DNA from: a virus
UHGV virus genome: UHGV-1545242
Length of the DNA: 38,625 nucleotides
Reading direction: 5' to 3' (one strand)
The notes beneath the pieces are model-generated. The model had not been told where the DNA came from. It did not search any database and saw nothing but the letters and a program-made list of their open reading frames with translations. The stretch's first letter is position 1, and every line of letters begins with the position of its first letter. Below, one piece after another: positions 151 to 38,327 of the stretch. Both the position numbers and the translations under genes were made by a program.

Positions 151-192
151 ACTCTCATACCGTCATGAAAATGGTTTCTATACGGGTGAATT

Positions 193-1449
193 GTGCTTAC
201 CGATACAAAATTAAAAAACCTCAAGCCGCAGGACAAACTGTACAAGGTCTCCGATCGTGACGGGCTGTATGTAGCTGTGCTTACGTCAGGCACGGTCTCG
301 TTTCGCTATGACTACCGTATCAACGGTCGCCGCGAAACACTGGTAATCGGGCAGTATGGGCGTGACGGTATCAGCCTGGCAGAAGCGCGAGAAGAACTGA
401 TTGCTGCAAAGAAGCTGCTTAAAGCAGGCCAGTCACCGGCTGCGGCTAAACGTGACGGTATCAAAAAGATTCGTGGTGCCGAGACGTTTGCGGTACATAC
501 CGACAGTTATATGAAACACGTCATCCTGGCTGACAGTACCCGCGCAATGAAGCAGGCGGTGATCGACCGTGACATACTTCCTGTTCTTGGTAACAAAATG
601 ATGGCTGAAATTACCACATCGATGGTTCGTGATTTGTGTGACCGGATTGTCGAACGCGGTGGTCGGGCAACAGCAGTACAGGCCAGGGAGATCATCAGCA
701 GCGTATACCGTCACGCCAATGACCGTGGTCATGGTTTGTTTAATCCTGCGGCTGACATTAAACCTTCGTCTATCGCCATATTTAAACCACGAGAGCGAAC
801 ACTGACACCAGAAGAAATTGGCCTGTTCTTCCGCACGCTGGATGCCATTGGTGCTATGGGCACTATGAAAATGGCTTTAAAACTGGTGCTTATCACTATG
901 GTTCGTAAGGGCGAATTCACCAATGCAACGTGGGATGAAATAGATTTTAAAAAATGGACATGGACAATTCCTTCAGACCGCATGAAGGGAAGCCGGGCGC
1001 ATGTTATTTACCTGCCTAAACAGGCTCAGGATATATTGGTCGGGTTGCAGATGTGCGCTGGTGGAAGTGAATATCTGGTTCCTGGTCGTTACAATTTCCG
1101 GAAGCCATTATCTAATGCCGCGCTGAACTCTCTGATCGACAGAACGGTGAAAATAATAAATGAAGATGGTGAGCATATTCAGGGCTTCACCGTACACGAT
1201 ATGCGCCGTACAGCCAGTACGTTGTTGCATGAGGCTGGTTATCCTTCAGACTGGATTGAAAAGGCTCTGGCACATGAGCAGAAAGGTGTGCGCGCCGTAT
1301 ATAACAAAGCGGAATACGCCAGACAGCGCGCCTACATGTTGCAGCAGTGGGCCGATATGATTGATTCCTGGATTAACGGGGAGCATACAGATCTGATTCC
1401 GTTCTCCCCGTCGAAGTTTGAGAGGTGGATGGAAGACAGTAATAAATAA
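193..1449 (+). CDS. int: Tyrosine recombinase, P4-type phage integrase
   Basis: 418-aa ORF; N-terminus LTDTKLKNLKPQDKLYKVSDRDGLYVAV typical of P4-family integrases; C-terminal HxxR..Y region (HDMRRTASTLL...VYNKAEY); GTG start at 193. Confidence 0.9.
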   Translation: MLTDTKLKNLKPQDKLYKVSDRDGLYVAVLTSGTVSFRYDYRINGRRETLVIGQYGRDGISLAEAREELIAAKKLLKAGQSPAAAKRDGIKKIRGAETFAVHTDSYMKHVILADSTRAMKQAVIDRDILPVLGNKMMAEITTSMVRDLCDRIVERGGRATAVQAREIISSVYRHANDRGHGLFNPAADIKPSSIAIFKPRERTLTPEEIGLFFRTLDAIGAMGTMKMALKLVLITMVRKGEFTNATWDEIDFKKWTWTIPSDRMKGSRAHVIYLPKQAQDILVGLQMCAGGSEYLVPGRYNFRKPLSNAALNSLIDRTVKIINEDGEHIQGFTVHDMRRTASTLLHEAGYPSDWIEKALAHEQKGVRAVYNKAEYARQRAYMLQQWADMIDSWINGEHTDLIPFSPSKFERWMEDSNK

Positions 1450-1451
1450 TT

Positions 1452-2111
1452 CTATCCTTCCTGGACTTTGGTAAGCGTCAGATTTCCGCAGAACACTGCG
1501 CCGGTGTCGATGTACATTTGGTTTGCATACACCAGTGGGTGATGTGCTGGCGTATGACCGAAGATGAACAAATCGGCACCGGTTATCTCCGAGACAATAC
1601 CGTCCTGCGCGTCGCTAACCCGCTCACGATTCCATATCACCATTTCTTCCGGTACTGGCTTATCGAATGCGTATTCGTTGTGCGGGTAGTCTGCGTGGCA
1701 GATGACGACCTTCTTATTGCCGGTAACCAGTTCGATAATCATCGGGAGGTTGGTAACCTTTGGCAGAAGGTATTTGAGTTGCACATCCTGCTCAGAATCA
1801 AGTTGGTGCCACCATCCACCGCCGTTTGACATCCAATGTCCGAAACTTCCGCCGTTGACCAGTGCATCCAGCATCATCTGCTCATGGTTGCCACGAACAG
1901 CTCGGAACCACGGCATAGTAATCAAATCCAGGCATTCGACGTTTTCAGCGCCGCGGTCAACAAGGTCACCAACGGAAATAAGCAAATCGCGCGCCGGGTC
2001 GAATGAAACTTTGTCGAGTTCGTTCATCAGCAGTGTGTAGCACCCATGCAGATCGCCGACGACGAAGATATTGCACCAGTCAGCGCCATTGATGCGTTGA
2101 TATAGGTTCAT
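1452..2111 (-). CDS. Ser/Thr protein phosphatase, lambda PPase-like metallophosphoesterase
   Basis: Motifs GDLHG, GDLVDRG, GNHE in translated ORF; start taken at MNLYQ, 4-bp overlap with upstream gene stop. Confidence 0.85.
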
Positions 2112-5840: not shown

Positions 5841-5921
5841 AACTTGTTACCTCGGTCTGTTACTGTTGGGGTAATAATTATGCTTATTTGGTTTGGTGTC
5901 AATAGATATGAGTTAAAAAAA

Positions 5922-5936
5922 TTACCCGTAAGGTAA
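5922..5936. promoter_or_regulatory. Operator-like palindrome TTACC-N5-GGTAA (leftward early promoter region)
   Basis: ttacccgtaaggtaa between repressor terminator and first leftward gene. Confidence 0.6.
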
Positions 5937-5946
5937 TCTATCTGGC

Positions 5947-5971
5947 AATAAAAAAGCCGCCATGAGGCGGC
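5947..5971 (-). terminator. Rho-independent terminator downstream of repressor gene
   Basis: GCCGCC-tcat-GGCGGC followed by T-run on minus strand. Confidence 0.6.
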
Positions 5972-5993
5972 TTACTTACTGAAAACTATAGTT

Positions 5994-6578
5994 TTATTGT
6001 TTGCTTTTTTCGTTCTGGTTGATGACAAATTCAATGTAACTTTCGATCTTTGCTTTCTCGGTTTCGGGTAACAATGCGTAGCGTGAGCGGTCATAGTTGA
6101 TAGTCGCAGGGTCGTGCGGGTGAATCAGTAGTTCATATCCGTGACGCCCGAATGCGGATGCAACATTCTCCAGGGTGGAAATGGAAACGCTGACCTCATT
6201 GTTTAACAGGCGGCTGATTGTCACCTGGGCGACGCCGGATGCGCGGTGAAGTTTTCCCTGCGTTGAAAGGTCGCGGCTTTCGCTCATCCAGCGTTCCAGG
6301 TTGTGAGCCGCCAGCTGACCAATGTCGCTTGGGCCGACAGGCTGAAAACCTTCCTGAGAAAGCGAGCGATCGATATCAAGCCAGTTACGGGGTTTATTGG
6401 CGGCAGCTTCAATTTTTCGCGCAACCTGGTCGCCGATAACCTTCTTGCCAAGAGCCCAGCGGTTTACCAGATTTGCCTGAGTTCCAAGTTTTTCTGCCAT
6501 CCGCGTCTGAACACCATTGAATTCACGGTCGATCAAGTCGTTGAGATTTTGCCTGCGGACGTCCTGGATACTTTTCAT
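5994..6578 (-). CDS. Prophage repressor (CI-like position), HTH DNA-binding protein without S24 peptidase domain
   Basis: Divergent from Cro-like gene; two HTH-like segments (MAEKLGTQANLVNRW; GVAQVTISRLLNNE); no Ala-Gly/Ser-Lys LexA-like autocleavage motifs seen. Confidence 0.7.
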   Translation of the reverse strand: MKSIQDVRRQNLNDLIDREFNGVQTRMAEKLGTQANLVNRWALGKKVIGDQVARKIEAAANKPRNWLDIDRSLSQEGFQPVGPSDIGQLAAHNLERWMSESRDLSTQGKLHRASGVAQVTISRLLNNEVSVSISTLENVASAFGRHGYELLIHPHDPATINYDRSRYALLPETEKAKIESYIEFVINQNEKSKQ

Positions 6579-6633
6579 TTTCTGGAAAATCGCCTCATAT
6601 ATGAATCAGTAGATGATTCAATTTAAAGCAATA

Positions 6634-6648
6634 TTACCCAACAGGTAA
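6634..6648. promoter_or_regulatory. Operator-like palindrome TTACC-N5-GGTAA (repressor/cro intergenic)
   Basis: ttacccaacaggtaa. Confidence 0.6.
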
Positions 6649-6681
6649 ATGCACCTCATAGGTAACCATCCTTGATTTTTG

Positions 6682-6696
6682 TTACCTTATGGGTGA
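6682..6696. promoter_or_regulatory. Operator-like near-palindrome TTACC-N5-GGTGA (repressor/cro intergenic)
   Basis: ttaccttatgggtga, 48 bp from previous site. Confidence 0.5.
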
Positions 6697-6732
6697 ATAT
6701 TTATTATCTGAAATAAATATCAGGCAATAGCT

Positions 6733-6963
6733 ATGAGCGATAACGGACATTTCGATTTCAAAAAGCACTGGCTTGCACTTACTCCGGATGAGCGTGAAGC
6801 CTTCGCACAGGAAGCCGGAACGACGAGTCACTATATCCAGACTCACTTAACAGGTAAGCGCAAAATGCCAGGTAAAGTATTGATGAATGGGCTTTTTAAA
6901 GCCTGTAAAACAAGACAATGGCTGCGCTCAAAAGCAGAACTGGCATACTTCTTCTACTCATGA
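6733..6963 (+). CDS. Cro-like small DNA-binding regulator
   Basis: 76-aa ORF divergent from repressor across operator-containing intergenic region. Confidence 0.6.
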   Translation: MSDNGHFDFKKHWLALTPDEREAFAQEAGTTSHYIQTHLTGKRKMPGKVLMNGLFKACKTRQWLRSKAELAYFFYS

Positions 6964-6985
6964 TATCCAGCTACAACCCTCTGTA

Positions 6986-7010
6986 GACCGCCACCCGGCG
7001 GTCTTTTCAT
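6986..7010 (+). terminator. Rho-independent terminator after cro-like gene (tR1-like)
   Basis: GACCGCC-accc-GGCGGTC followed by TTTTC. Confidence 0.6.
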
Positions 7011-7018
7011 ATCTATTC

Positions 7019-7033
7019 GTACCTCAAAGGTAA
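7019..7033. promoter_or_regulatory. Operator-like near-palindrome GTACC-N5-GGTAA after cro terminator
   Basis: gtacctcaaaggtaa, preceded by atctattcgt. Confidence 0.45.
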
Positions 7034-8957: not shown

Positions 8958-8972
8958 TTACCTGCTGGGTAA
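8958..8972. promoter_or_regulatory. Operator-like palindrome TTACC-N5-GGTAA downstream of P-like gene
   Basis: ttacctgctgggtaa. Confidence 0.55.
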
Positions 8973-9019
8973 TAAAATATTCTAAAATCTATTGATTTAG
9001 TGTCTTATGTGGTTTTTAA

Positions 9020-9034
9020 TTACCTCAGGGGTAA
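9020..9034. promoter_or_regulatory. Operator-like palindrome TTACC-N5-GGTAA overlapping RBS of frameshifted gene
   Basis: ttacctcaggggtaa, 62 bp from previous site, AT-rich promoter-like DNA between. Confidence 0.55.
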
Positions 9035-12610: not shown

Positions 12611-13281
12611 ATACTGCCGCCAACTATGGTGGCTTTATTTTGCATGGTACTATTACCACAACGGTAACTATTACCACGGTGGTTATGATGCCTGCTGAAC
12701 CTAAAACCTATAAACGCAAATCAACGCAATTTAAGCCACTAACAGCAATGCAGGAGGCTTATTGCCAGTCATACATCAAAACGCCTGAAAACCAGACTCA
12801 GGCAGCGATTAACGCAGGATTCTCCCCAAATACAGCGGCAGTTAAAGCCAGTGTCATGATGCGCGACGAACGCATTCAAAAACGGATTGCCGAGTTGATG
12901 GAGGAGCGCAACAAACGAATGCGCGTCAGTGCTGATTACGTTCTCATGCGCCTGGTGGAGATCGACCAGATGGACGTGATTGATATCCTCAACGACGATG
13001 GGAGCCTTAAGCCAATCCGCGAGTGGCCGAAAATCTGGCGCACTACGCTTAGCGGCTTTGATCTGTCATCGACCATCATGAACATGAACGAGGATTCGAT
13101 AGAGACAATCCTCAAAAAAATTAAATGGCCTGACAAGGTGAAGAACCTCGAACTGATTGGTAAGCACGTCGACGTCAACGCATTCAAAGAACGCCTGGAT
13201 GTTAATGTGAATGTGACAATTGCTGATCGCATAGCAGCAGCCAGGAAGCGACTCAAAGAACGTCAGGATGGTAATCAGTGA
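12607..13281 (+). CDS. Terminase small subunit
   Basis: Segment AMQEAYCQSYIKTPENQTQAAINAGFSPNTAAVKASVMMRDERIQKRIAEL matches the Terminase_2 small-subunit pattern; start may be internal (MMPAEP at ~12685). Confidence 0.75.
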   Translation: MNTAANYGGFILHGTITTTVTITTVVMMPAEPKTYKRKSTQFKPLTAMQEAYCQSYIKTPENQTQAAINAGFSPNTAAVKASVMMRDERIQKRIAELMEERNKRMRVSADYVLMRLVEIDQMDVIDILNDDGSLKPIREWPKIWRTTLSGFDLSSTIMNMNEDSIETILKKIKWPDKVKNLELIGKHVDVNAFKERLDVNVNVTIADRIAAARKRLKERQDGNQ

Positions 13282-15375: not shown

Positions 15376-15452
15376 TGGCGTGGCATGCAGGATTCGAACC
15401 TGCGACCAACCGCTTAGAAGGCGGTTGCTCTGTCCAACTGAGCTAATGCCAC
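15376..15452 (-). tRNA. tRNA-Arg (anticodon UCU)
   Basis: Manual fold of minus-strand sequence: 7-bp acceptor stem GTGGCAT/ATGCCAC, D arm GCTC/GAGC, anticodon stem ACCGC/GCGGT with loop CTTCTAA, T arm GCAGG-TTCGAAT-CCTGC, encoded CCA. Confidence 0.85.
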
Positions 15453-18779: not shown

Positions 18780-19772
18780 ATGACAATGGCTGTTAAAGGC
18801 TTAACTGCGCTAACGCTGGCTGACTGGGGTAAGCGCGTCGATCCAAACGGGAAAGTCGATAAGATTATCGAGCTTCTCAGTCAAACTAACCCAATCCTTC
18901 AGGATATGCCTTTTGTTGAAGGAAACCTTCCTACCGGACACCGAACCACCATTCGTTCTGGTTTGCCTTCCGCTACTTGGCGTTTGCTGAACTATGGCGT
19001 ACAACCGAGCAAATCAACAACGGTGCAGGTCACTGATTCCATTGGCATGCTGGAAACCTATGCTGAAGTCGATAAGTCTCTGGCTGATCTGAACGGTAAT
19101 ACTGCCGAATTCCGCCTGTCTGAAGACCGAGCATTTATTGAAGCGATGAATCAGGCGATGGCGCAGACGCTGTTTTACGGTGATTCCAGCGTTAACCCTC
19201 AGCAGTTTATGGGACTGTCCTCCCGCTATTCCAGCCTGTCTGCGGGTAATGCTCAGAACATCATTGATGCTGGTGGCACGGGTACAGATAACACTTCAAT
19301 CTGGTTAGTGGTGTGGGGCGAAAACACCGTGCATGGCATCTTCCCGAAAGGGCAGAAGGCTGGCATCCAGATGGAAGATAAAGGCCAGGTGACACTGGAA
19401 GATGCTAATGGCGGCAAGTACGAAGGTTATCGTACCCATTATAAGTGGGACAACGGGCTGACATTGCGTGACTGGCGCTATGTTGTTCGCATTGCAAACA
19501 TCGATGTCAGCAATCTTGACGCTCCTTCTACTGCTGCGAATATCGCAAAACTGATGATTCGTGCCCTTCATCGAATCCCAAATCGTGGGATGGGACGTCC
19601 TATTTTCTACATGAACAGAACCATTAACGAAGTGCTTGACCTGCAATCTCTGGAGAAGAGTTCTCTGGCGATCAGCGTGAAAGAGACAGAAGGCGAATGG
19701 TGGACAGAAATTCGTGGTGTGCCGATTCGCGAAACTGACGCACTTCTGGAAACAGAAGCCCGCGTGGTGTAA
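18780..19772 (+). CDS. Major capsid protein
   Basis: 330-aa ORF after scaffold, strong SD (AGAGGAAATGACAATG), followed by terminator at 20624. Confidence 0.8.
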   Translation: MTMAVKGLTALTLADWGKRVDPNGKVDKIIELLSQTNPILQDMPFVEGNLPTGHRTTIRSGLPSATWRLLNYGVQPSKSTTVQVTDSIGMLETYAEVDKSLADLNGNTAEFRLSEDRAFIEAMNQAMAQTLFYGDSSVNPQQFMGLSSRYSSLSAGNAQNIIDAGGTGTDNTSIWLVVWGENTVHGIFPKGQKAGIQMEDKGQVTLEDANGGKYEGYRTHYKWDNGLTLRDWRYVVRIANIDVSNLDAPSTAANIAKLMIRALHRIPNRGMGRPIFYMNRTINEVLDLQSLEKSSLAISVKETEGEWWTEIRGVPIRETDALLETEARVV

Positions 19773-19823
19773 CGCCTGTTATTAACCTGTGGGCCGCAAC
19801 AGGCCCACTAATGGAGAAAGAAG

Positions 19824-20261
19824 ATGATCACCGACAAACTGTTGATGTTCTCCGAAGCTCAGGCGGTTACGAATACCGCGGCTTCTACTGACGTAATCGA
19901 TCTCGGTCCAATTGATGGAAACCGTCGCGATATCGGCGTGGGTTATCCGCTTGAGTTTTGGGGGCTGGTTAACGAAGCCGCCACGGCAAGTGGTGAGGCA
20001 ACTGTAAACATCCAGTTGCAGACGAGTGAGAATAACAGCTCATGGTCCACTATTTATGATAGTGGCGCACTGGCAAAGGCCACCCTGACAGCAGGTAAGC
20101 GAGTTGTTTCTGCAAAGGTGCCAGCCGGTGTTCAGCGATATCTGCGTGTTAACTACTCCGTCGCAACTGGCCCACTAACGGCTGGCAAATTCACTGCGGG
20201 TATCAATCTTGATGTTGATGCCAATACGCCGTATCCGATCCGCTCAAAAGTAACTGGTTAA
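19824..20261 (+). CDS. Virion structural protein (possible capsid decoration)
   Basis: 145-aa ORF immediately after capsid gene. Confidence 0.5.
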   Translation: MITDKLLMFSEAQAVTNTAASTDVIDLGPIDGNRRDIGVGYPLEFWGLVNEAATASGEATVNIQLQTSENNSSWSTIYDSGALAKATLTAGKRVVSAKVPAGVQRYLRVNYSVATGPLTAGKFTAGINLDVDANTPYPIRSKVTG

Positions 20262-20262
20262 G

Positions 20263-20607
20263 GTGATATTGATGTCAGGTGAGAAACCAAGATACCGCGT
20301 TCTGCGCCTCTCTCATATCCATAACACTCTGTGGCCGGAGGGGGCAGAAATCGAATACGAAGGTGAGCCTGGTAGCGCACTGGAACCTGTTAACGATGCA
20401 GCCAGACAGGCAAAAGCAAAAGTTGCAGGAAAGGTGTCAATGGCAGCAACCAGCACCAAAATCATCAACGATGTGTCAGATGATGGTGAACTGGATAAGC
20501 TCCGTGAAGAGTACGAATTGCTCTTTAACGAGAAGCCACACCATAACGCCAAAGCCGAAACGCTCCGCGAGAAGATCGCAGATAAGCGTAAAGAACTGGG
20601 CGTGTAA
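20263..20607 (+). CDS. Hypothetical structural-module protein
   Basis: 114-aa ORF, charged C-terminus. Confidence 0.5.
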   Translation: MILMSGEKPRYRVLRLSHIHNTLWPEGAEIEYEGEPGSALEPVNDAARQAKAKVAGKVSMAATSTKIINDVSDDGELDKLREEYELLFNEKPHHNAKAETLREKIADKRKELGV

Positions 20608-20981: not shown

Positions 20982-21586
20982 TGGCCTCTGTAGTAGAGAT
21001 CTGTAATCGTGCGCTGTCCAATATTGGCAACAGCCGCAGCATTAACAGCCTGACGGAAGCCAGCAAGGAAGCGGGGGAATGTTCGCTGCACTTTGAGGCC
21101 TGCCGTGATACTGTGCTTTCTGATTTTGACTGGAACTTTGCTACCAAACGCGTGGCGCTTGCAGATACGAGCAATCCACCGCCTGACTGGGAATATGCGT
21201 ACCAGTACCCGTCAGATTGTCTGCGCATTACTGAAATTATGCTTCCTGGTGTACGCAATCCAACAGCAGCAATGCGCGTTCAGTACGAAGTTGGTGCAGA
21301 CACCAACGGAACAGGAAAGTTGATCTACACAGACCAGCCTCAGGCATGGCTCAAGTATGTCTCTCGCGTTACAGATGTGAACATGTTTGATGCCATTTTT
21401 ATGGAGGCGTTGGCCTGGCGTCTTGCGGCAGCTATTAACATGGCGCTGACTGGGAATGCAGACCTCGGTACGTTTGCCCTCAATATGTACAATCGCGTGA
21501 TTCTTAGTGCTGGCTCGCATAGCCAGAATGAATCACAGGAACCACAGCCACCGGTTGACGAGTTTACCATTGCGAGGTTGTCCTGA
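20978..21586 (+). CDS. Virion protein, possible head-tail adaptor
   Basis: 202-aa ORF coupled to the following large tail gene. Confidence 0.5.
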   Translation: MMASVVEICNRALSNIGNSRSINSLTEASKEAGECSLHFEACRDTVLSDFDWNFATKRVALADTSNPPPDWEYAYQYPSDCLRITEIMLPGVRNPTAAMRVQYEVGADTNGTGKLIYTDQPQAWLKYVSRVTDVNMFDAIFMEALAWRLAAAINMALTGNADLGTFALNMYNRVILSAGSHSQNESQEPQPPVDEFTIARLS

Positions 21587-24057
21587 TGGCTATCAGTTGG
21601 ATCCAGCCCAGCTTTGCTGGTGGTGAGATTGGACCGTCGTTGTACGGACGTATCGACATGGCGAAGTACCAGGTGGCATTGCGCAAGTGCGATAACTTTA
21701 TCGTGCGGCAGTATGGCGGCGTTGAGAATCGACCTGGTACGCGTTTTGTCGGTGCCGCCAAATATCCAAATCGGAAATGCCGCCTGATCCCGTTCCAGTT
21801 CTCGACGGTTCAGACTTATGCTCTGGAGTTCGGACACCAGTACATGCGCGTTATCAAAGATGGTGCGTTGGTGCTGAACAGCAGCAATGTTATTTATGAA
21901 ATTTCCACGCCATATACTGAAGCCGATCTGTTCCGAATTAAATTCACGCAAAGCGCAGACGTGCTTACGCTGGTTCATCCGGCATACCCGCCGAAAGAGT
22001 TGCGCCGCTATGCGCATGACAACTGGCAACTGGTTGATGTGGTAACGAAGAACGGGCCATTTGAAGATATCAATATTGACGAGTCAGTGACGGTTTATGC
22101 CAGCGCCAGCACCGGGACAATTACGCTAACGGCAAGCGCCTCTATTTTTGGCGCGGAGCAGGTAGGCAAATTGTTCTATCTGGAACAGCCTGCAGTGGAT
22201 TCTGTGCCGGTATGGGAAACCAGTAAGAGTACGTCGATTGGCGATATTCGCCGAGCAGACAGTAACTACTATCGCGCCGTTAAAGCAGGCAAAACAGGTA
22301 CTTTGCGCCCTTCGCATACAGAAGGCACATCATGGGATGGCTGGGGCGGATCCGGTGATGATGATACTGGCATTGAGTGGGAATATCTGCACAGTGGTTT
22401 TGGCATTGCCCGTATCACTGCTGCAAATGGAACTACTGCAACTGCCGAGGTGATTTCCTATATCCCTTCGCAGGTAGTTGGCGAGGATAATGCCAGCTAT
22501 AAATGGGCTAAATATGCCTGGAACAGTGTTAATGGTTATCCTGGCACTGTTGTTTATTATCAACAACGTCTTTACTTCGCCGCATCGACTGCGTTTCCTC
22601 AGACTATCTGGGCCAGCCGTACCGGGGATTATAAGGATTTTGGCAAAAGCAATCCTACGCAGGATGACGACAGAATTATCTACACCTATGCCGGGCGTCA
22701 GGTTAATGAGATCCGTCACCTGATTGATGTTGGTTCGCTGGTGGCGCTGACTTCCGGAGGTGAGTACGTCATCACTGGCGACCAGAACAAAGTGCTTACC
22801 CCATCATCATTTGCATTCAGCTCTCAGGGATCAAATGGCTCGAGCAATGTCCCACCAATTGCCGTGGCGAATATTGCTCTGTTCGTCCAGGAGAAAGGCA
22901 GTGTTGTCCGTGATCTGGCCTACTCATTCGATGTTGACGGCTATCAGGGGAACGACCTGACCATCCTTGCCAATCATCTTTTTCAGAAGCACAGTATTGT
23001 TGACTGGTGCTTCTCTATTGTCCCTTACTCCAGCGCCTTCTGCATTCGTGATGACGGTAAATTACTGGTGATGACCTATTTGCGTGATCAGCAGGTTTTT
23101 GCATGGGCACCACAATCCAGTACCGGAAAATATGAAAGCACATGCAGTATCAGCGAAGGAAATGAAGATGCGGTGTATTTCGTCGTTAACCGAACCGTTA
23201 ACGGGCAAACAGTGAGATACATCGAGCGACTGTCCAGCCGTTTATTTACCAGCGATGAAGATGCTTTCTTTGTTGATTCTGGCCTTAGCTATGATGGAAG
23301 AAATACGTCTGACAGAACGATGACCATCACTGGTGGTTCTGGTGAATGGGATTACCGCGCGGAATATACAATCAGTATTTCTGGTGGTGCGTACTTCACC
23401 AGTAGTGATGTCGGTGCGCAACTACAATTCCCTTATACCGGAACTGATCCTGATACTGGCGATGAAGTGTCAAAAGAATTACGTTGCGACATTATTTCTG
23501 TAACCAGCAATACCGCTGTAGTGGTTCGTCCTAACAGGAACGTCCCATCATCCCTCAGGAATGTGGCCACCACGAACTGGCAGATGGCGCGCCGGACATT
23601 TGGAGGCCTGTCTCATCTTGAAGGCCAGACCGTAAACATTCTCTCTGATGCGAACGTGGAACCACAGAAAGTTGTTTCCGGAGGTGCCGTCACGCTGGAA
23701 TCTCCGGGGGCTGTAGTGCACATCGGCCTGCCAATAACTGCTGAATTCGAAACACTGGATATCAACATTAGCGGACAGGAAACGCTGCTGGACAAAAAAC
23801 AGGTGATCCCGTCCGTTACTCTGGTTGTGAATGCCAGTCGCGGCATCTGGGCGACTACGCCCGGCGGTAAATGGTACGAATATCCACAGCGTGAATTCGA
23901 GTTCTACGATGATCCTGTTGATGATGCTACCGGAAAAGTAGAAGTGAAACTGGACAGTAACTGGGGCAAAAACGGACGTGTAAAAATCCGTCAGCTTGAC
24001 CCGTTGCCGCTGTCTGTTCTTGCCGTTATTCCTCGCCTTACTGTTGGGGGATTCTGA
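21586..24057 (+). CDS. Large tail protein, probable tail tube/nozzle (T7 gp12-like position)
   Basis: 823 aa, beta-rich composition, located after adaptor-like gene. Confidence 0.55.
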   Translation: MAISWIQPSFAGGEIGPSLYGRIDMAKYQVALRKCDNFIVRQYGGVENRPGTRFVGAAKYPNRKCRLIPFQFSTVQTYALEFGHQYMRVIKDGALVLNSSNVIYEISTPYTEADLFRIKFTQSADVLTLVHPAYPPKELRRYAHDNWQLVDVVTKNGPFEDINIDESVTVYASASTGTITLTASASIFGAEQVGKLFYLEQPAVDSVPVWETSKSTSIGDIRRADSNYYRAVKAGKTGTLRPSHTEGTSWDGWGGSGDDDTGIEWEYLHSGFGIARITAANGTTATAEVISYIPSQVVGEDNASYKWAKYAWNSVNGYPGTVVYYQQRLYFAASTAFPQTIWASRTGDYKDFGKSNPTQDDDRIIYTYAGRQVNEIRHLIDVGSLVALTSGGEYVITGDQNKVLTPSSFAFSSQGSNGSSNVPPIAVANIALFVQEKGSVVRDLAYSFDVDGYQGNDLTILANHLFQKHSIVDWCFSIVPYSSAFCIRDDGKLLVMTYLRDQQVFAWAPQSSTGKYESTCSISEGNEDAVYFVVNRTVNGQTVRYIERLSSRLFTSDEDAFFVDSGLSYDGRNTSDRTMTITGGSGEWDYRAEYTISISGGAYFTSSDVGAQLQFPYTGTDPDTGDEVSKELRCDIISVTSNTAVVVRPNRNVPSSLRNVATTNWQMARRTFGGLSHLEGQTVNILSDANVEPQKVVSGGAVTLESPGAVVHIGLPITAEFETLDINISGQETLLDKKQVIPSVTLVVNASRGIWATTPGGKWYEYPQREFEFYDDPVDDATGKVEVKLDSNWGKNGRVKIRQLDPLPLSVLAVIPRLTVGGF

Positions 24058-24521
24058 TGATCGATGTTCAAATTATTCCCGCTACCGAAGAGCATCTTCA
24101 GATGATTTTGCCGGATGTTCGTCAGGCTGATATTGACGAACTGTATGCGGTATCGCTGATGACTACCGAAGATGCGCTGCGTGTTGGTCTTCGCACTGCG
24201 ACTATGGCCTGGTCAGGATTTGCGAACGGAGAACTGGTAACCATGTTTGGCGTATCTCCGGCGTCAATGATCGGTGGCAATGGTACGCCCTGGCTGGTAG
24301 GAACCAGCCGTATTGAAAAATATCAGAAGACATTTCTTCGCCACTGCCGCCCTGTATTGCAGCAGATGCTGGCAGTTTATCCGCGCCTGGAAAACTACGT
24401 CGACGAGCGAAACCATGTTGCCAAAGCATGGCTGCACTGGCTTGGATTCAGGCTTGAAGAAGCCGCGCCTTATGGTGCTCTTGGTCTTAATTTCCACAGA
24501 TTTCACATGGAGAGAAAATAA
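24057..24521 (+). CDS. Virion-associated protein
   Basis: 154-aa ORF translationally coupled in tail/ejection module. Confidence 0.5.
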   Translation: MIDVQIIPATEEHLQMILPDVRQADIDELYAVSLMTTEDALRVGLRTATMAWSGFANGELVTMFGVSPASMIGGNGTPWLVGTSRIEKYQKTFLRHCRPVLQQMLAVYPRLENYVDERNHVAKAWLHWLGFRLEEAAPYGALGLNFHRFHMERK

Positions 24522-25060
24522 TGTGTAACCCAGCCATCGCTTTGGTTGCCGTCACAGTGGCATCCACAGCCGCGTCAATGTACAGCCAGAGCAAGCAGGC
24601 AAAATACCAGTCAGCCATAGCTGATCGGAATGCTGAAATTGCTGAAGCTCAGGCACAGGATTCAATCAATCGTGGGAATATTGAAGCGGATCAGCGTCGT
24701 CGTGAAATGCGTCAACGCTCAGGCACTGCGGCGGCCACTATGGGGGCTACCGGTGCGGAATTAAGTAGCGGAACAGCTCTTGACGTTTTTGCGGATAATG
24801 CTCAGTTCGGCACTCTTGATGCGTTAACGACAGTGAATAATGCTCAGCGTGAGGCATATGGGTATCAGGTTCAGGGAATGAATGCTCAGGCACAGGGGGC
24901 TGCTGCTCAGTCGGCTGCTAAATCATCGATGACCAGCACTTTGTTAACGGCACCACTAAAAGCATACGGTGCATACCAGATGGGCGGCGGAACGTGGAGC
25001 CCGTTCTCTCAGAAGGCTGCGCCGATTTCTGCTGCTGTTGGCACTCCAACCGGTCGATAA
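24521..25060 (+). CDS. Internal virion/ejection protein (small, N-terminal hydrophobic segment)
   Basis: N-terminal PAIALVAVTVASTAASM hydrophobic stretch; Ala/Gln-rich. Confidence 0.5.
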   Translation: MCNPAIALVAVTVASTAASMYSQSKQAKYQSAIADRNAEIAEAQAQDSINRGNIEADQRRREMRQRSGTAAATMGATGAELSSGTALDVFADNAQFGTLDALTTVNNAQREAYGYQVQGMNAQAQGAAAQSAAKSSMTSTLLTAPLKAYGAYQMGGGTWSPFSQKAAPISAAVGTPTGR

Positions 25061-29390: not shown

Positions 29391-31865
29391 ATGAGACAGG
29401 AATGTATACAAGCGGTCCAGCAGGCGGCGCAGCGCACGTTAACGGCGCGAGAAATACAGAACATTGAAGACCGCATTTATCGAAATATGCGCTCCATTGC
29501 TCGTGATGACCCGATGTCGTGGCGACAACTTTCCGAATCAGAACGGTTGTATCGTGCAGCACAATTGGCATCTGAAGAATTACAGCGAGAAGCGACATTA
29601 AAGAAACGTCGTGTGGCTCTCACTATAGCCGCACGTCAGAGATTGGATAAATTTATCAATAGCTATCAAGGGGCTGATGGGAAACTTGGCGCTCTTAACC
29701 GTACTATTGCTTTTAATGCAGACGGTAAATCGAATTTCCTCTCTGTTGAATCCAGAACAAAAGCCACTCGTGATTATGCATTGAGTCAATTGCAGGAGGC
29801 ATTTGAAGCAGTTGATCCTCGCTTTTTTGGCCTGTTTGAAGATGAAGCGGGCGTGCGTGATCTGGTATATGAAATGCGAGGGCAAAATACTGGCAATGCT
29901 AAAGCAAGAAAAGGTGCTAAGGCGTGGAGAGAAGTGACAGAGCTACTGCGCCGCCGGTTTAATGATGCTGGTGGTGACATTGGCTATCTCGAAAACTGGG
30001 GGATCCCTCAACATCATTCTATGGAAAAGGTTGGGGCGGTATCAAAGGATAAGTGGGTTAGCGATATTATAGGTAAGCTGGATCGCAAATATTATACTCG
30101 AGCCGATGGACAACTGATGAACGATGCCGAGTTGTCTGCATTTCTTGGAGAATCTTATAACACAATCGCCACTGGTGGGCTGAATAAGCTTACTGATACC
30201 GGCATGCGAATTTCCGGCGCACGTGCTAATCGTGGTAATGCATCACGACAGATACATTTCAAAGATGCAGATTCCTATCTGCAATATCAGCAACTTTATG
30301 GCGATCGCTCTCTATGGGAAGTCATGGTCGGTCACCTGGAAGGTATCAGTAAAGATATTGCACTGGTGGAAACATATGGCCCAAACCCCGATCATGTTTT
30401 CCGCTCCCTTCTTGATCAGGTGAAGGCAGAAACGGCAACAGCTAACCCGAGTAAAACCGGTAGCGTCGAGCGCCTGGCGAACAACACAGAGAATCTGTAC
30501 AACTTTATTTCAGGAAAGACACAGCCTGTAGCGAATCCGCACATCGCGCGCTGGTCTGACAATATCCGCAATTGGCTGGTTGCCAGCCGACTCGGATCCG
30601 CGTTGCTGTCATCGTTCTCTGATCTTGGAACCATGTATCTGTCTGCGAAGGTGACCAACCTTCCAATGAACCAGTTATTCCGCAACCAGCTTGAAGCTAT
30701 GGACCCAACGAACCGGACTGAGCTTGCGCGGGCGCGCCGCGCTGGTCTGGCGATGGAATCTCTACTTGGCAGCGTTAACCGCTGGGCGATGGATAATATG
30801 GGGCCGTCAGTGTCTCGTTGGGCGGCAACGGCGGTAATGCGTGCCAGTGGGCTTACAGCATGGTCAGATGCGCACAAGCGCGCCTATGGCGTAACCATGA
30901 TGGGAAGCCTGGGAGAAGTAGTGTCACGGACACCAGACCTTCGTAGCCTCGATGACTCTGATTTTCGTATCCTGAAAAGCAAAGGGATTACTGACACAGA
31001 CTGGAGCGTATGGAAGCTGGCGCAACAGGAGGACTGGGGGAACGGTAATAATACGATGCTGACACCGGAAAGCATTATGCGTATCCCTGATTCAGCAGTT
31101 AAACATCTTGGTGAGCCTGAACGCGTGAAATTTGAGGCAATGCGTAAACTGCTCGGTGCCGTAACTGAAGAAGTTGATATGGCTGTTATTACACCGGGAG
31201 CACGTGAGCAACTGATAACCGGTTCTGGTATTCAGCGTGGAACATGGAAAGGTGAATTAACGAGAAGTGTTTTCCTGTTTAAATCGTTCCCTATCTCGGT
31301 TGTTATGCGTCACTGGTCACGCGCTATGGGTATGCCGTCTGCTGGTGGGCGTGCGGCATATATTGCGACGTTTATTGCCAGTACGACCATTCTTGGCGCT
31401 TTGTCGCAGCAACTTAACGACCTTGCGTCTGGTCGTAATCCTCGAGAGATGACAGGAGAAGATGCCGCAAAATTCTGGCTTGGTGCTCTACTGAAAGGTG
31501 GTGGTCTTGGCCTTTACGGTGACTTTTTATTGTCAGATCACACTAGGTACGGAAGCGGCGCGCTGGCGTCGATGCTTGGCCCGGTAGCTGGTCTGGTTGA
31601 TGACGTAGTGAAGATTGCTCAGGGCATACCGTTAAATGCTGTGGAAGGGAAGAGTGAGCAGACTGGTGGTGATCTGGTGAAGCTGGGGAAAGGTTTGATG
31701 CCAGGTGCGAATCTCTGGTACTTGAAGGCGGCTCTCGATCACATGATCTTTAACCAGATGCAGGAGTATTTTTCACCTGGCTATTTGCGTAAAATGGAGC
31801 AACGTTCGAAGAAAGAGTTTAACCAGACATACTGGTGGCGACCACAGGATGTCACTCCGCAATAA
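29391..31865 (+). CDS. Internal virion/ejection protein (largest)
   Basis: 824-aa ORF, last of three consecutive large genes before tailspike. Confidence 0.55.
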   Translation: MRQECIQAVQQAAQRTLTAREIQNIEDRIYRNMRSIARDDPMSWRQLSESERLYRAAQLASEELQREATLKKRRVALTIAARQRLDKFINSYQGADGKLGALNRTIAFNADGKSNFLSVESRTKATRDYALSQLQEAFEAVDPRFFGLFEDEAGVRDLVYEMRGQNTGNAKARKGAKAWREVTELLRRRFNDAGGDIGYLENWGIPQHHSMEKVGAVSKDKWVSDIIGKLDRKYYTRADGQLMNDAELSAFLGESYNTIATGGLNKLTDTGMRISGARANRGNASRQIHFKDADSYLQYQQLYGDRSLWEVMVGHLEGISKDIALVETYGPNPDHVFRSLLDQVKAETATANPSKTGSVERLANNTENLYNFISGKTQPVANPHIARWSDNIRNWLVASRLGSALLSSFSDLGTMYLSAKVTNLPMNQLFRNQLEAMDPTNRTELARARRAGLAMESLLGSVNRWAMDNMGPSVSRWAATAVMRASGLTAWSDAHKRAYGVTMMGSLGEVVSRTPDLRSLDDSDFRILKSKGITDTDWSVWKLAQQEDWGNGNNTMLTPESIMRIPDSAVKHLGEPERVKFEAMRKLLGAVTEEVDMAVITPGAREQLITGSGIQRGTWKGELTRSVFLFKSFPISVVMRHWSRAMGMPSAGGRAAYIATFIASTTILGALSQQLNDLASGRNPREMTGEDAAKFWLGALLKGGGLGLYGDFLLSDHTRYGSGALASMLGPVAGLVDDVVKIAQGIPLNAVEGKSEQTGGDLVKLGKGLMPGANLWYLKAALDHMIFNQMQEYFSPGYLRKMEQRSKKEFNQTYWWRPQDVTPQ

Positions 31866-31873
31866 AAGGAGAT

Positions 31874-31999
31874 ATGATGGTTCAAATAACTTTTATTGTA
31901 CTAATATGTGCAGCGTTTTTATGCTATTCATACATTTTGATAAAAATGGGTTTCAATTGGAACCTCTGTTGCGTGCAGCGGCATGGTTCGGCTTTGTAG
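31874..31999 (+). CDS. Small hydrophobic membrane peptide (41 aa), moron
   Basis: AAGGAG SD then ATGATG; manual translation MMVQITFIVLICAAFLCYSYILIKMGFNWNLCCVQRHGSAL; AT-rich context. Confidence 0.35.
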   Translation: MMVQITFIVLICAAFLCYSYILIKMGFNWNLCCVQRHGSAL

Positions 32000-32084
32000 T
32001 ATTCGGAATTGTATTGTTCGGAAGAATAATAAAATAACTAGTTAATTTGTGGATTGGTGCTGTTTTTCCATGATAGGGGTAATT

Positions 32085-32465
32085 ATGAGAAAAGTATTTT
32101 TGATTTTTGGATTTATGCTTCTCGTTGGATGCCAGTCAGCTGCACAGTTTGAAAGAAATATGCTTACGTGGCGCGGGCAGAGTATAGACGCAATGGTTCA
32201 GCAGTGGGGGTATCCTCAGGGAGAGCTTACATCTCCAGATGGAAACAGAGTGTATGTTTACTCAAGCTCTGGTAGTTATAACGTACCACAAACCACAACG
32301 TATAATACTACGTCTAATCTAATTGGTAATACTATATATTCAAACACATACGCAACAACTGATGGCGGTTATACACTCCATTTCAGTTGCTCTGTTTACG
32401 TTGAGTTTGGTGCTGATAAGATTATTAAAAATGTTACATGGCGCGGTAATAATTGCGTTGCGTGA
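32085..32465 (+). CDS. Outer-membrane lipoprotein (moron), candidate superinfection-exclusion factor
   Basis: Signal peptide with lipobox MRKVFLIFGFMLLVGC, +2 residue Gln; Thr/Ser/Tyr/Asn-rich mature part with two C-terminal Cys; AT-rich. Confidence 0.65.
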   Translation: MRKVFLIFGFMLLVGCQSAAQFERNMLTWRGQSIDAMVQQWGYPQGELTSPDGNRVYVYSSSGSYNVPQTTTYNTTSNLIGNTIYSNTYATTDGGYTLHFSCSVYVEFGADKIIKNVTWRGNNCVA

Positions 32466-32473
32466 CATGTCAC

Positions 32474-32496
32474 AGGCCGCTTTCGCGGCCTTTAAA
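32474..32496 (+). terminator. Terminator hairpin between convergent moron genes
   Basis: AGGCCGC-tttc-GCGGCCT followed by TTTAAATTT. Confidence 0.55.
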
Positions 32497-32497
32497 T

Positions 32498-32755
32498 TTA
32501 CCGGGTTTGTTTTCGTAATTGTTCGGCACAATAGTCGAGATGTGTTTGCAGATCCTGCATAGACATCTGTGAGCTGGTGACGTAGTTAATCAATGCAGTC
32601 AGTTCGGCAAGTGGGCCATCGACATTAAATCCATCCTTATCGAGATCCCGGAGTAATTTCATCAAGTGCGATCCCTCCACCAGTGACCTGACGCCTCCCG
32701 GCGTGTGAATCCTTTCGGTAAATCCGTCTTCCAGTGGATAGTGATACTGCTGCAT
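32498..32755 (-). CDS. Hypothetical 85-aa protein, convergent to lipoprotein and divergent from tailspike
   Basis: Minus-strand ORF open in AT-rich DNA; ATG at 32755 preceded by GGAGAAG; ORF track shows a longer 126-aa extension. Confidence 0.5.
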   Translation of the reverse strand: MQQYHYPLEDGFTERIHTPGGVRSLVEGSHLMKLLRDLDKDGFNVDGPLAELTALINYVTSSQMSMQDLQTHLDYCAEQLRKQTR

Positions 32756-32821
32756 CTTATCTTCTCCATGCAATAACTGTATATTTATACAGTAGCAAAT
32801 AATTTGTTTGCTATCCAGCAC

Positions 32822-32836
32822 GTTTTGCAAATTACC
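32822..32836. promoter_or_regulatory. Operator-like palindrome TTACC-N5-GGTAA in divergent region upstream of tailspike
   Basis: ttacctgaaaggtaa; followed by atctattcgta, also seen at 7011-7021. Confidence 0.55.
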
Positions 32837-32950
32837 TGAAAGGTAATATCTATTCGTATTTACAGTCTTTCTATCCATATGTGGTTTTCCAGGTAATAGA
32901 ATAACCAGATATGCGGCGCAACGGGTGCTGCGACTATCTGGAGATTTAAC

Positions 32951-35900
32951 ATGACGGTCTCAACCGAAGTTGACCACAACGAATACACCGGTAACGGCGT
33001 TACGACATCGTTTCCGTATACTTTTCGAATTTTCAGAAAATCAGACCTGGTTGTTCAGGTGTCTGACCTGAACGGAAACGTAACAGAATTGGTTCTGGAT
33101 ACCGGTTATACGGTAACTGGGGCGGGCACTTATAGTGGCGGTTCTGTGGTTCTTCCGTCTCCGCTTGCTACTGGATGGCGAATTACGATAGATCGTGTGC
33201 TTGATGTAGTGCAGGAGACAGACCTTCGCAATCAGGGAAAATTTTTCCCCGAAGTGCATGAAGATGCCTTTGACTACCTGACGATGCTGATCCAGCAATG
33301 TTTTGGGTGGTTCAGACGTGCATTGATGAAACCATCTTTGCTTGCAAAATATTACGATGCAAAGCAAAACAAAATTTCTAACCTTGCAGATCCATCATTT
33401 GAGCAGGACGCTGTAAATAATCGCTCAATGCGTAATTATGTCGATGCTGCAATCGCCGGGGTTGTTGGTGGTTTTGGTTGGTTTATTCAGTATGGTTCTG
33501 GGGCTGTGTACCGAACGTTCCAGGATAAAATGCGTGATGCTATTAGCCCCAAAGATTTTGGAGCTGTTGGTGATGGTATAAATGACGATTCCACTGCAAT
33601 AAGCGCGTGCCTTGAAGCCTCATCTCCAGGTTATAAAATTGACGGATTAGGGCTTACTTTTAAAGTATCAACTCTTCCGGATGTCAGTCGATTTAAAAAT
33701 GCTCGTTTTTTATTTGAGAGAATACCGGGCCAGCCTCTTTTTTATGCTTCTGAAGATTTTATCCAGGGAGAGTTATTTAAAATTACAGATACACCGTGGT
33801 ACAACGCCTGGACGCAGGATAAAACGTTTGTATATGACAATGTCATCTATGCGCCTTTTATGGCTGGAGACCGCCATGGTGTAAATAACCTCCATGTTGC
33901 ATGGGTTCGCTCAGGAGATGACGGGAAGACCTGGACAACGCCGGAATGGCTTACAGATTTACATGAAAACTATCCCACAGTTAACTATCACTGCATGAGT
34001 ATGGGGGTTGTCAGAAATCGCCTTTTTGCTGTAATTGAGACGCGGACCGTGAGAGGAAATAAACTGCAGGTTGCAGAGTTGTGGGATCGCCCAATGAGTC
34101 GCAGCCTTCGCGTTTATGGTGGTATAACGAAAGCAGCAAATCAGCAAGTCGCTTATATTCGCATTACTGATCACGGATTATTTGCTGGTGATTTTGTCAA
34201 CTTCTCAAACTCTGGTGTTACAGGTGTTACCGGGAATATGACGGTGACTACTGTTATTGATAAAAATACCTTTACAGTTACGACGCAAAATACCCAGGAT
34301 GTGGATCAGAATAACGAGGGTAGATACTGGAGTTTTGGCACATCATTTCACTCGTCACCATGGAGAAAAACCAGTCTTGGAACTATTCCTTCTTTTGTTG
34401 ACGGAAGCACTCCTGTTACTGAGATTCACAGTTTTGCGACGATTAGCGATAACAGTTTTGCTGTTGGCTACCATAATGGTGATATTGGTCCACGCGAGCT
34501 TGGGATACTCTATTTCTCTGATGCTTTCGGTTCTCCTGGTAGCTTTGTTCGCAGACGCATACCTGTAGAATATGAGGCGAATGCATCTGAGCCATGTGTA
34601 AAATATTATGATGGCATTCTGTATCTGACGACCAGGGGGACATTAAGTACTCAACCCGGTAGTTCATTGCACAGAAGCTCTGATTTAGGTACATCATGGA
34701 ATTCTCTTCGCTTCCCAAATAATGTTCATCACTCAAACCTTCCTTTTGCCAAAGTTGGCGATGAGCTGATTATTTTTGGCAGTGAGCGCGCATTTGGTGA
34801 GTGGGAAGGAGGAGAACCTGATAACCGTTATGCAGGAAATTATCCAAGAACATTTATGACCAGAGTTAACGTCAATGAGTGGAGTCTGGATAATGTAGAG
34901 TGGGTTAATGTTACTGATCAGATTTATCAGGGCGGAATAGTTAACTCTGCGGTTGGTGTTGGTTCAGTTTGTATCAAAGACAACTGGCTGTACTACATTT
35001 TCGGTGGGGAAGACTTTCTAAACCCATGGAGCATAGGGGATAACAACAGAAAATATCCTTATGTTCACGATGGTCACCCGGCTGATTTGTATTGTTTCAG
35101 GGTGAAAATTAAACAGGAAGAATTTGTTTCAAGGGATTTTGTCTACGGAGCCACTCCTAACAGAACGCTTCCTACTTTTATGTCGACGTCAGGCGTGAGG
35201 ACGGTTCCTGTACCCGTTGATTTCACAGATGATGTTGCCGTCCAGTCACTGACTGTCCATGCAGGTACATCAGGACAAGTTCGCGCGGAAGTCAAACTTG
35301 AGGGTAATTACGCCATTATTGCGAAGAAAGTACCGTCTGATGATGTTACCGCTCAGAGATTAATCGTTAGCGGCGGTGAAACAACGTCTTCAGCAGATGG
35401 TGCAATGATAACGTTGCATGGTTCCGGAAGCAGTACTCCACGTCGCGCGGTATATAACGCACTCGAACATCTTTTTGAGAACGGAGATGTTAAACCTTAT
35501 CTTGATAATGTAAATGCTCTTGGTGGTCCGGGAAACAGGTTCTCGACAGTTTATCTTGGCTCCAATCCTGTGGTTACCAGTGACGGAACATTAAAGACAG
35601 AGCCGGTCTCTCCTGACGAAGCATTGCTGGATGCCTGGGGTGACGTCAGGTATATCGCTTATAAATGGCTGAACGCTGTCGCTATAAAGGGGGAAGAAGG
35701 GGCGAGGATACATCATGGTGTAATCGCGCAGCAACTTCGTGATGTTCTTATTTCTCACGGACTCATGGAAGAAGAAAGCACAACATGCCGCTATGCCTTT
35801 CTTTGCTATGACGATTATCCCGCAGTATATGATGACGTCATTACTGGCCAAAGGGAAATGCCGCTGACTGATAATGACGGGAGCATCATTGTTGATGAGG

Positions 35901-36070
35901 ATGATAATCCAGTGATGGTAATAGAAGACATCATTGAGCGCGTTGAAATAACGCCAGCAGGATCTAGATGGGGGGTCAGACCTGATCTCTTATTCTATAT
36001 CGAGGCAGCATGGCAGCGCAGAGAAATGGATAAGATAAAAGAGCGGGTTCAGTCTCTGGAAGAACGTTAA
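32951..36070 (+). CDS. Tailspike/depolymerase with C-terminal intramolecular chaperone (S74-type) domain
   Basis: 1039 aa; conserved N-terminal virion-attachment region; central DFGAVGDGINDDSTAI beta-helix start motif; C-terminal TSDGTLK...YIAYKW...RIHHGVIAQQL pattern. Confidence 0.85.
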   Translation: MTVSTEVDHNEYTGNGVTTSFPYTFRIFRKSDLVVQVSDLNGNVTELVLDTGYTVTGAGTYSGGSVVLPSPLATGWRITIDRVLDVVQETDLRNQGKFFPEVHEDAFDYLTMLIQQCFGWFRRALMKPSLLAKYYDAKQNKISNLADPSFEQDAVNNRSMRNYVDAAIAGVVGGFGWFIQYGSGAVYRTFQDKMRDAISPKDFGAVGDGINDDSTAISACLEASSPGYKIDGLGLTFKVSTLPDVSRFKNARFLFERIPGQPLFYASEDFIQGELFKITDTPWYNAWTQDKTFVYDNVIYAPFMAGDRHGVNNLHVAWVRSGDDGKTWTTPEWLTDLHENYPTVNYHCMSMGVVRNRLFAVIETRTVRGNKLQVAELWDRPMSRSLRVYGGITKAANQQVAYIRITDHGLFAGDFVNFSNSGVTGVTGNMTVTTVIDKNTFTVTTQNTQDVDQNNEGRYWSFGTSFHSSPWRKTSLGTIPSFVDGSTPVTEIHSFATISDNSFAVGYHNGDIGPRELGILYFSDAFGSPGSFVRRRIPVEYEANASEPCVKYYDGILYLTTRGTLSTQPGSSLHRSSDLGTSWNSLRFPNNVHHSNLPFAKVGDELIIFGSERAFGEWEGGEPDNRYAGNYPRTFMTRVNVNEWSLDNVEWVNVTDQIYQGGIVNSAVGVGSVCIKDNWLYYIFGGEDFLNPWSIGDNNRKYPYVHDGHPADLYCFRVKIKQEEFVSRDFVYGATPNRTLPTFMSTSGVRTVPVPVDFTDDVAVQSLTVHAGTSGQVRAEVKLEGNYAIIAKKVPSDDVTAQRLIVSGGETTSSADGAMITLHGSGSSTPRRAVYNALEHLFENGDVKPYLDNVNALGGPGNRFSTVYLGSNPVVTSDGTLKTEPVSPDEALLDAWGDVRYIAYKWLNAVAIKGEEGARIHHGVIAQQLRDVLISHGLMEEESTTCRYAFLCYDDYPAVYDDVITGQREMPLTDNDGSIIVDEDDNPVMVIEDIIERVEITPAGSRWGVRPDLLFYIEAAWQRREMDKIKERVQSLEER

Positions 36071-38211: not shown

Positions 38212-38327
38212 ATATAAAACGGTACGGGAAAAATTGAGATTTGGAAAAATGTTATCACTCAATTGGTTATGGTTATCGTAAATAATTGAGTGGGAATGAT
38301 TTTGATCCCTGCACTATGAATGAACAA

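Follow-up and report, generated by a model that had tools for sequence, protein, structure and literature searches.

A homologue of the SPC32H antirepressor behind a LexA box in a phiV10-like Escherichia coli prophage

The lysis-lysogeny switch of the prophage described here is very probably the Rep/Ant/LexA switch of Salmonella phage SPC32H, present in a phiV10-type prophage of E. coli. The homology of its repressor (Rep) and of an 85-residue protein (Ant) to a crystallised repressor-antirepressor pair, the absence of an S24 domain from Rep, a LexA box upstream of the ant gene and the synteny with SPC32H are established here. Coordinates (Table 1) refer to the window, which is the whole stretch of 38,625 nucleotides analysed (virus genome UHGV-1545242).

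A BLAST comparison with phiV10 shows that the window follows the phiV10 genome over its whole length, with the order permuted at the attachment site, such that base 1 of the window corresponds to phiV10 position 26735 and window position 38301 to phiV10 position 26736. Judged from this collinearity, the window is therefore a complete phiV10/epsilon15-like prophage of the genus Uetakevirus (epsilon15-like podophages). Over about 1.7 kb around the immunity region, the identity to Escherichia phages phiV10, PAS61 and their relatives is 97-98%. E. coli chromosomes commonly carry related prophages.

A tRNA-Arg gene (anticodon TCT; 15376-15452, minus strand) is situated between the terminase and portal regions, and a tRNA-Arg occupies the corresponding position in SPC32H. 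An ORF for a calcineurin-like metallophosphoesterase of the lambda Ser/Thr phosphatase type (1452-2111, minus strand; Metallophos E 1.2e-15) adjoins int, in a block that is not collinear with phiV10. The tailspike gene (32951-36070, plus strand) encodes a full endosialidase, consisting of the End_N_terminal domain, a beta-propeller (E 1.7e-232), a beta-barrel, the End_tail_spike domain and an S74 chaperone domain. The composition of this tailspike suggests that the phiV10-like prophage is probably specific for the K1 polysialic-acid capsule. The O-acetyltransferase gene of phiV10, located 3' of its tail fibre gene, is inside a phiV10 block (21120-24824) that is unmatched in the window.

Table 1. 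Features of the switch region, the predicted Rep operators and the block that replaces the phiV10 Bro-N gene
Feature	Position	Strand	Basis or remarks
Intrinsic terminator 3' of rep	5954..5973	-	also annotated in phiV10
rep, prophage repressor, 194 aa	5994..6578	-	ORF, Pfam, PDB match
Rep domains (approximate): HTH DNA-binding; linker; HTH_3-like middle dimerisation; C-terminal tetramerisation/Ant-binding	residues 1-70; linker; 89-152; 153-194		domain names from PMC9986798
cro-like early regulator, 76 aa	6733..6963	+	divergent from rep; phrog_35 'transcriptional repressor' E 5.6e-13
ant, antirepressor, 85 aa, SPC32H Ant orthologue	32498..32755	-	PDB match, tblastn, synteny
Shine-Dalgarno sequence of ant, GGAGAAG	32761..32767	-	read from sequence; GGAG invariant in upstream alignment
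LexA (SOS) box TACTGTATAAATATACAGTT	32775..32794	-	18 of 20 consensus positions matched; ends 21 nt upstream of the ant ATG
15-nt palindromes (predicted Rep operators), start positions	136, 5860, 5922, 6634, 6682, 7019, 8958, 9020, 12653, 12671, 15775, 32832		
Leftward early promoter region	5860..5936		palindromes 5860-5874 and 5922-5936, 62 bp apart
rep-cro spacer cluster	6634..6696		TTACCCAACAGGTAA (6634-6648); degenerate GCACCTCATAGGTAA (6651-6665); TTACCTTATGGGTGA (6682-6696)
Palindrome pair 3' of the replication genes	8958..9034		two perfect palindromes, 62 bp apart
Palindrome ATTACCTTTCAGGTAAT	32831..32847		in the spacer between ant and the tailspike gene; 36 nt from the LexA box on its upstream side
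Block replacing phiV10 Bro-N gene	31849..32465 (replacement also delimited as 31878-32498)	+	62-aa membrane-like ORF; lipoprotein-like ORF, 126-138 aa (phrog_3716, no assigned function)

Rep matches chain A of PDB entry 5D50 ('Repressor') over residues 1-190 (E 3.5e-42), and a profile of the Rep family matches SPC32H Rep with an E value of 2.9e-109. The entries 5D50 and 5D4Z contain Rep of SPC32H, which is likewise a Uetakevirus and whose genes rep and ant are named in GenBank. The sequence identity of the present Rep is 99% to phiV10 p40, 78% to Rep of Enterobacter phage Tyrion and 43% overall to Rep of SPC32H and eps15. Within this last comparison it amounts to 54% in the DNA-binding domain (DBD), 34-36% in the middle dimerisation domain (MDD) and 45% in the C-terminal CAD. 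In PHROGs, Rep is found among transcriptional regulators and repressors. The description of Rep in the first-pass annotation as a 194-residue protein with two HTH-like segments is borne out by Pfam, which finds HTH_3 at residues 106-147 (E 1.2e-9) and weaker Cro/YdaS-type HTH matches at residues 20-61. SPC32H Rep is described in PMC9986798 as consisting of an N-terminal DBD, the MDD and the CAD, the last of which has a p53-like tetramerisation fold (TetDloop) and also binds Ant. Upon alignment to these domains, the second HTH-like segment of Rep is therefore assigned as the MDD.

The small cro-like gene that diverges from rep is syntenic with SPC32H_042 and with eps15 gp39. A strong intrinsic terminator (6985-7004, plus strand) lies directly 3' of it and is followed by one of the palindromes listed in Table 1, at 7019. 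Early transcription to the right may therefore depend on terminator read-through or on a further promoter.

Within the late region, the ant gene is flanked by the last virion gene on one side and by the divergently transcribed tailspike gene on the other. Its product matches chain E of 5D50 ('Anti-repressor protein') with an E value of 4.1e-47 and is 88% identical (tblastn) to the protein annotated 'ant: anti-repressor protein' in SPC32H and SPC32N (KC911856/KC911857). It is 97.6% identical to phiV10 p24 and 84% identical to eps15 gp19, both of which are annotated 'hypothetical'. Across phages of E. coli, Salmonella and Enterobacter the identity is 78-88%, and it is 63% in Klebsiella phage BUCT711. 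The real start of ant is the ATG at 32755. The order of the genes is the same as in SPC32H, with the virion genes followed by ant on the minus strand and the tailspike gene on the plus strand, and with rep and cro divergent. Ant has no family in Pfam; its best PHROG match is phrog_450, which carries no assigned function, and its residues 27-75 weakly resemble the C-terminus of phrog_1760 proteins. The first-pass annotation had found no obvious antirepressor in the window and had named a canonical antirepressor as the discovery that would overturn its view. Such a gene is present, and it is preceded by the only LexA box of the window. Its site in the late region, and not in the nin region, explains why it was overlooked in an unaided reading.

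When searched with the 20-nt E. coli LexA consensus TACTGTATATATATACAGTA, the window contains one match within three mismatches, the site upstream of ant, with 0 expected from shuffled sequences. At 32777-32792 the match contains an exact CTGT-N8-ACAG whose core is AT-rich. The strict 20-mer alone is informative for such a search; the loose motif CTGT-N8-ACAG at one mismatch gives 17 matches where 13.1 are expected. A site with one mismatch at 32850-32865 was considered as a second LexA box and rejected, as it is not conserved in the relatives.

The sequences upstream of ant were aligned for the window, phiV10, SPC32H, eps15, Tyrion and BUCT711. All six retain the LexA box, the GGAG and the ATG. 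In the five phages the ant box is the only match to the consensus within four mismatches, barring one extra site in BUCT711. This second near-consensus box (TACTGTATATTTAAACAGTA; BUCT711 382-401, two mismatches) is far from ant and sits between two small minus-strand ORFs; no other relative has a second box.

In the ant region the deposited sequences of SPC32H and SPC32N differ at a single base, in the right arm of the box, where SPC32H reads ACAG and SPC32N reads AAAG. SPC32N reportedly owes its lytic growth to a point mutation in the LexA site, which overlaps the ant promoter, so that Ant is expressed constitutively. In SPC32H, Rep is said to stay uncleaved during SOS and ant expression to be repressed by LexA. 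The base change in the deposited sequences agrees with this account, credited to Kim & Ryu (2013). In the window, transcription of ant must begin inside the near-consensus box or further upstream. A sigma-70 consensus scan for promoters called none for ant. A candidate promoter, proposed with low confidence, would consist of TGGATA (32817-32812), a 17-nt spacer and TACTGT (32794-32789) on the minus strand, placing the -10 element inside the LexA box. This candidate is conserved and matches 7 of 12 consensus positions.

The switch would thus operate as follows. In the lysogen, LexA would keep ant off and Rep would silence the prophage, most likely in the form of a tetramer occupying ATTACC-N5-GGTAAT palindromes at the two early promoters (leftward and rightward) and at other places. 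Rep would be incapable of self-cleavage, the sensor of damage being the host LexA on the SOS box that covers the start of the ant transcription unit. DNA damage would generate RecA*, leading to self-cleavage of LexA and to the synthesis of Ant. By binding the C-terminal part of Rep, Ant would split the tetramer into dimers with poor DNA binding, and the early and lytic promoters would open once the tetramer is lost. The first-pass annotation had left it unclear how the prophage senses DNA damage. As a LexA-box-controlled homologue of a crystallised antirepressor occupies 32498-32794, sensing would proceed through cleavage of LexA, which answers that question.

Each step has a counterpart in what is described for SPC32H. 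The review PMC7380047, citing Kim & Ryu 2013, describes a route in which cleavage of LexA gives rise to Ant, a protein that inhibits the repressor through protein-protein contact. According to PMC9638917, Rep binds DNA as a tetramer in which the DNA-binding pairs are drawn from different dimers, and an Ant tetramer binds two Rep dimers, breaking the Rep tetramer. A 2025 preprint cites SPC32H Ant as trapping its repressor in a non-functional conformation. Binding of LexA to the box, binding of Ant to Rep and the persistence of uncleaved Rep in the present phage would follow from homology and from this literature. Because Rep is just 43% identical to the characterised Rep of SPC32H, we infer its binding by the 88%-identical Ant.

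Most SOS-inducible lambdoid repressors are inactivated by RecA*-driven self-cleavage. If Rep had a cryptic or divergent activity of this kind, it could be inactivated directly by RecA*, in the manner of lambda CI or LexA, and ant would be an accessory. This is extremely unlikely. Domain prediction, which the first-pass annotation had recommended, gave no divergent S24 fold: Rep has no match to peptidase S24 in Pfam at E<=1, and a profile of six Rep-family members finds no peptidase S24 domain among all PDB sequences at E<=10. The sole 'LexA'-named match of the profile in the PDB is a 94-residue HTH-only chain that aligns with the N-terminal HTH (E 0.62). Neither an Ala-Gly nor a Cys-Gly dipeptide occurs among the 194 residues of Rep. 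The C-terminal half of Rep (residues 89-190) aligns to PDB 5D4Z (Rep residues 92-198), a region that PMC9986798 describes as a dimerisation and tetramerisation module and not as a protease. On this alignment the approximately 105 residues that follow the DBD are fully accounted for, leaving no room for a protease fold. AlphaFold2, run on Rep as a single sequence, gave a mean pLDDT of 44.9 and a pTM of 0.22, too low for the model to be of use, and the S24 question was decided by comparing sequences and profiles with the PDB. On this point the first-pass annotation holds: it had reported that Rep lacks an S24/LexA-type Ser-Lys dyad and an Ala-Gly site, and had concluded that induction probably does not run through RecA-stimulated self-cleavage, a view to which the full-length homology with SPC32H Rep can now be added.

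Induction might instead depend on another antirepressor, encoded by a nin-region ORF or being of the Bro-N type, or on a signal other than SOS, while the 85-residue protein does something else. phiV10 and Tyrion do carry a second, larger 'antirepressor' of the Bro-N type that adjoins ant and has a C-terminus resembling Ant, and the 3' end of phiV10 p23 (Bro-N) together with p22 contains a frameshifted Ant-like segment (19551-20230; tblastn E 1.6e-9). Several nin-region ORFs are also without a known function in PHROG. However, p23 is missing from the window, where phiV10 block 19350-20542 has been replaced, and a tblastn search with Ant gives only one significant location there. Bro-N, ANT and KilA-N domains were searched for with Pfam and PHROG in the ORFs of the nin region and of those blocks in which the window departs from phiV10, and none was found; for ORFs with a collinear annotated counterpart in phiV10, the judgement rests on that annotation. 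With an 85-residue protein that is so similar to one crystallised in complex with Rep, an alternative route of induction is very unlikely. Many E. coli prophages are defective, and the switch could be degenerate, with ant or its control non-functional and the element not SOS-inducible. This is very unlikely as well. The ant ORF is intact and its product shares 98-100% identity with the Ant of phages that form plaques, among them ZX5, PAS61 and phiV10, both arms of the LexA box (CTGT and ACAG) are intact, and the rep ORF is intact in an element collinear with the whole of phiV10.

The Rep/Ant/LexA reading places the prophage closest to the SPC32H switch (Kim & Ryu 2013 J Virol; Kim et al. 2016 PNAS; PDB 5D4Z, 5D50). 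All features that define an SPC32H-type switch and can be tested in a sequence are present, namely Rep, a homologue of the approximately 86-residue Ant, the LexA box and the synteny. The two phages have in common a full-length orthologous Rep without S24, an orthologous Ant, a LexA box directly upstream of ant, the location of ant with virion genes on one side and a divergent tailspike gene on the other, the layout of rep and cro, and TTACC-N5-GGTAA palindromes. The prophage differs from SPC32H in that its Rep is of the phiV10/Tyrion sequence type, just 43% identical to that of SPC32H, and its host is E. coli. The arrangement of genes, LexA box and synteny is conserved in phages of four host genera, represented by E. 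coli, Salmonella, Enterobacter and Klebsiella. The mechanism is already known, this being an orthologous case of a published and structurally solved switch in the same phage genus, and its discovery value is therefore small.

The same regulatory logic, in which a small protein repressed by LexA inactivates a non-cleavable repressor, is that of coliphage 186 Tum and of the Gifsy and Fels-2 antirepressors (Shearwin 1998; Lemire 2011), as outlined in the review PMC7380047. The likeness to Ant seen here is one of regulatory logic. SPC32H Ant disassembles the Rep tetramer and, as described in PMC9638917, does not compete for the DNA-binding surface. With repressors of the lambda CI/LexA type, Rep shares an N-terminal HTH DNA-binding domain, divergence from cro and an outcome linked to SOS, but it has neither the S24 domain with its Ser-Lys dyad nor the cleavage site, and RecA* would act on LexA. 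P22 Ant and the antirepressors of the Bro-N/KilA-N types are likewise encoded away from the immunity region, but they are much larger and have other domains, and P22 ant is under the control of Mnt/Arc and not of LexA. Ant of SPC32H is said to be structurally distinct from the antirepressors of Sipho- and Myoviridae.

The palindrome TTACC-N5-GGTAA, extended to ATTACC-N5-GGTAAT, occurs 12 times in the window with at most one mismatch, and seven of the copies are perfect. The number expected is 0.58, and none of 100 shuffled sequences reached 12. Almost all copies are intergenic or at the starts of operons. The pair at the leftward early promoter flanks the predicted -35 element TTGACA (5902) and -10 element (5874), and in the rep-cro spacer the site TTACCTTATGGGTGA overlaps the -35 element of the predicted rightward promoter at 6679. 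The copy at 136 is upstream of int, and those at 12653 and 12671 are at the start of terS. The relatives have 8-10 perfect palindromes each in syntenic places with the same spacings of 62 bp and 17/18 bp, and the 17-bp and approximately 48-bp spacings of the rep-cro cluster are also the same. In the RefSeq record of eps15 five of the palindromes (at PL, at ant and downstream of the replication genes) are annotated 'protein_bind: repressor', including the site equivalent to 32831-32847.

The palindrome is probably the operator of Rep and would be used throughout the genome. It is shared by phages whose Reps are 43% identical, and a factor other than Rep was considered as its ligand. That is judged less likely, because the putative recognition helix of the DBD, NLVNRW, is invariant in both Rep lineages, the sites bracket predicted early promoters and the eps15 annotation designates them as repressor sites. 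The spacing of 62 bp corresponds to roughly six turns of the helix and is consistent with a single tetramer that bridges two palindromes.

Some wider proposals can be based on this set of sites. The conserved palindrome between ant and the tailspike gene suggests that Rep itself may control ant or the divergent tailspike promoter. Rep repressing ant and Ant inactivating Rep may then form a toggle of mutual inhibition that is gated by LexA. A Rep tetramer may bridge two operators at several promoters and so silence more than PL and PR. The Reps of these phages fall into two lineages, phiV10/Tyrion and SPC32H/eps15/BUCT711, which are about 43% identical to each other and have the same NLVNRW helix and the same operator palindrome. 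The common helix and operator, together with the 88%-identical Ant, suggest that cross-immunity or cross-induction between these phages is possible in spite of the divergence of Rep. The combined proposal, in which Rep co-controls ant and the tailspike gene, bridges paired operators and silences the whole genome, with cross-induction or cross-immunity among relatives, is tentative and rather doubtful. The set of Rep operators and the possible co-regulation of ant are nevertheless the only part of the system with some residual novelty.

Of 5426 complete E. coli genomes, 535 contain the ant region. Among the matches listed, the RefSeq annotation of E. coli has only 'hypothetical protein' over ant, and most phage records use the same label. 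This is a gap in the annotation of a structurally characterised protein. As ant is labelled 'hypothetical' and has no Pfam family, automated annotation makes these common prophages appear to be without an SOS sensor. The link to SOS predicts that these prophages would be induced by DNA-damaging antibiotics.
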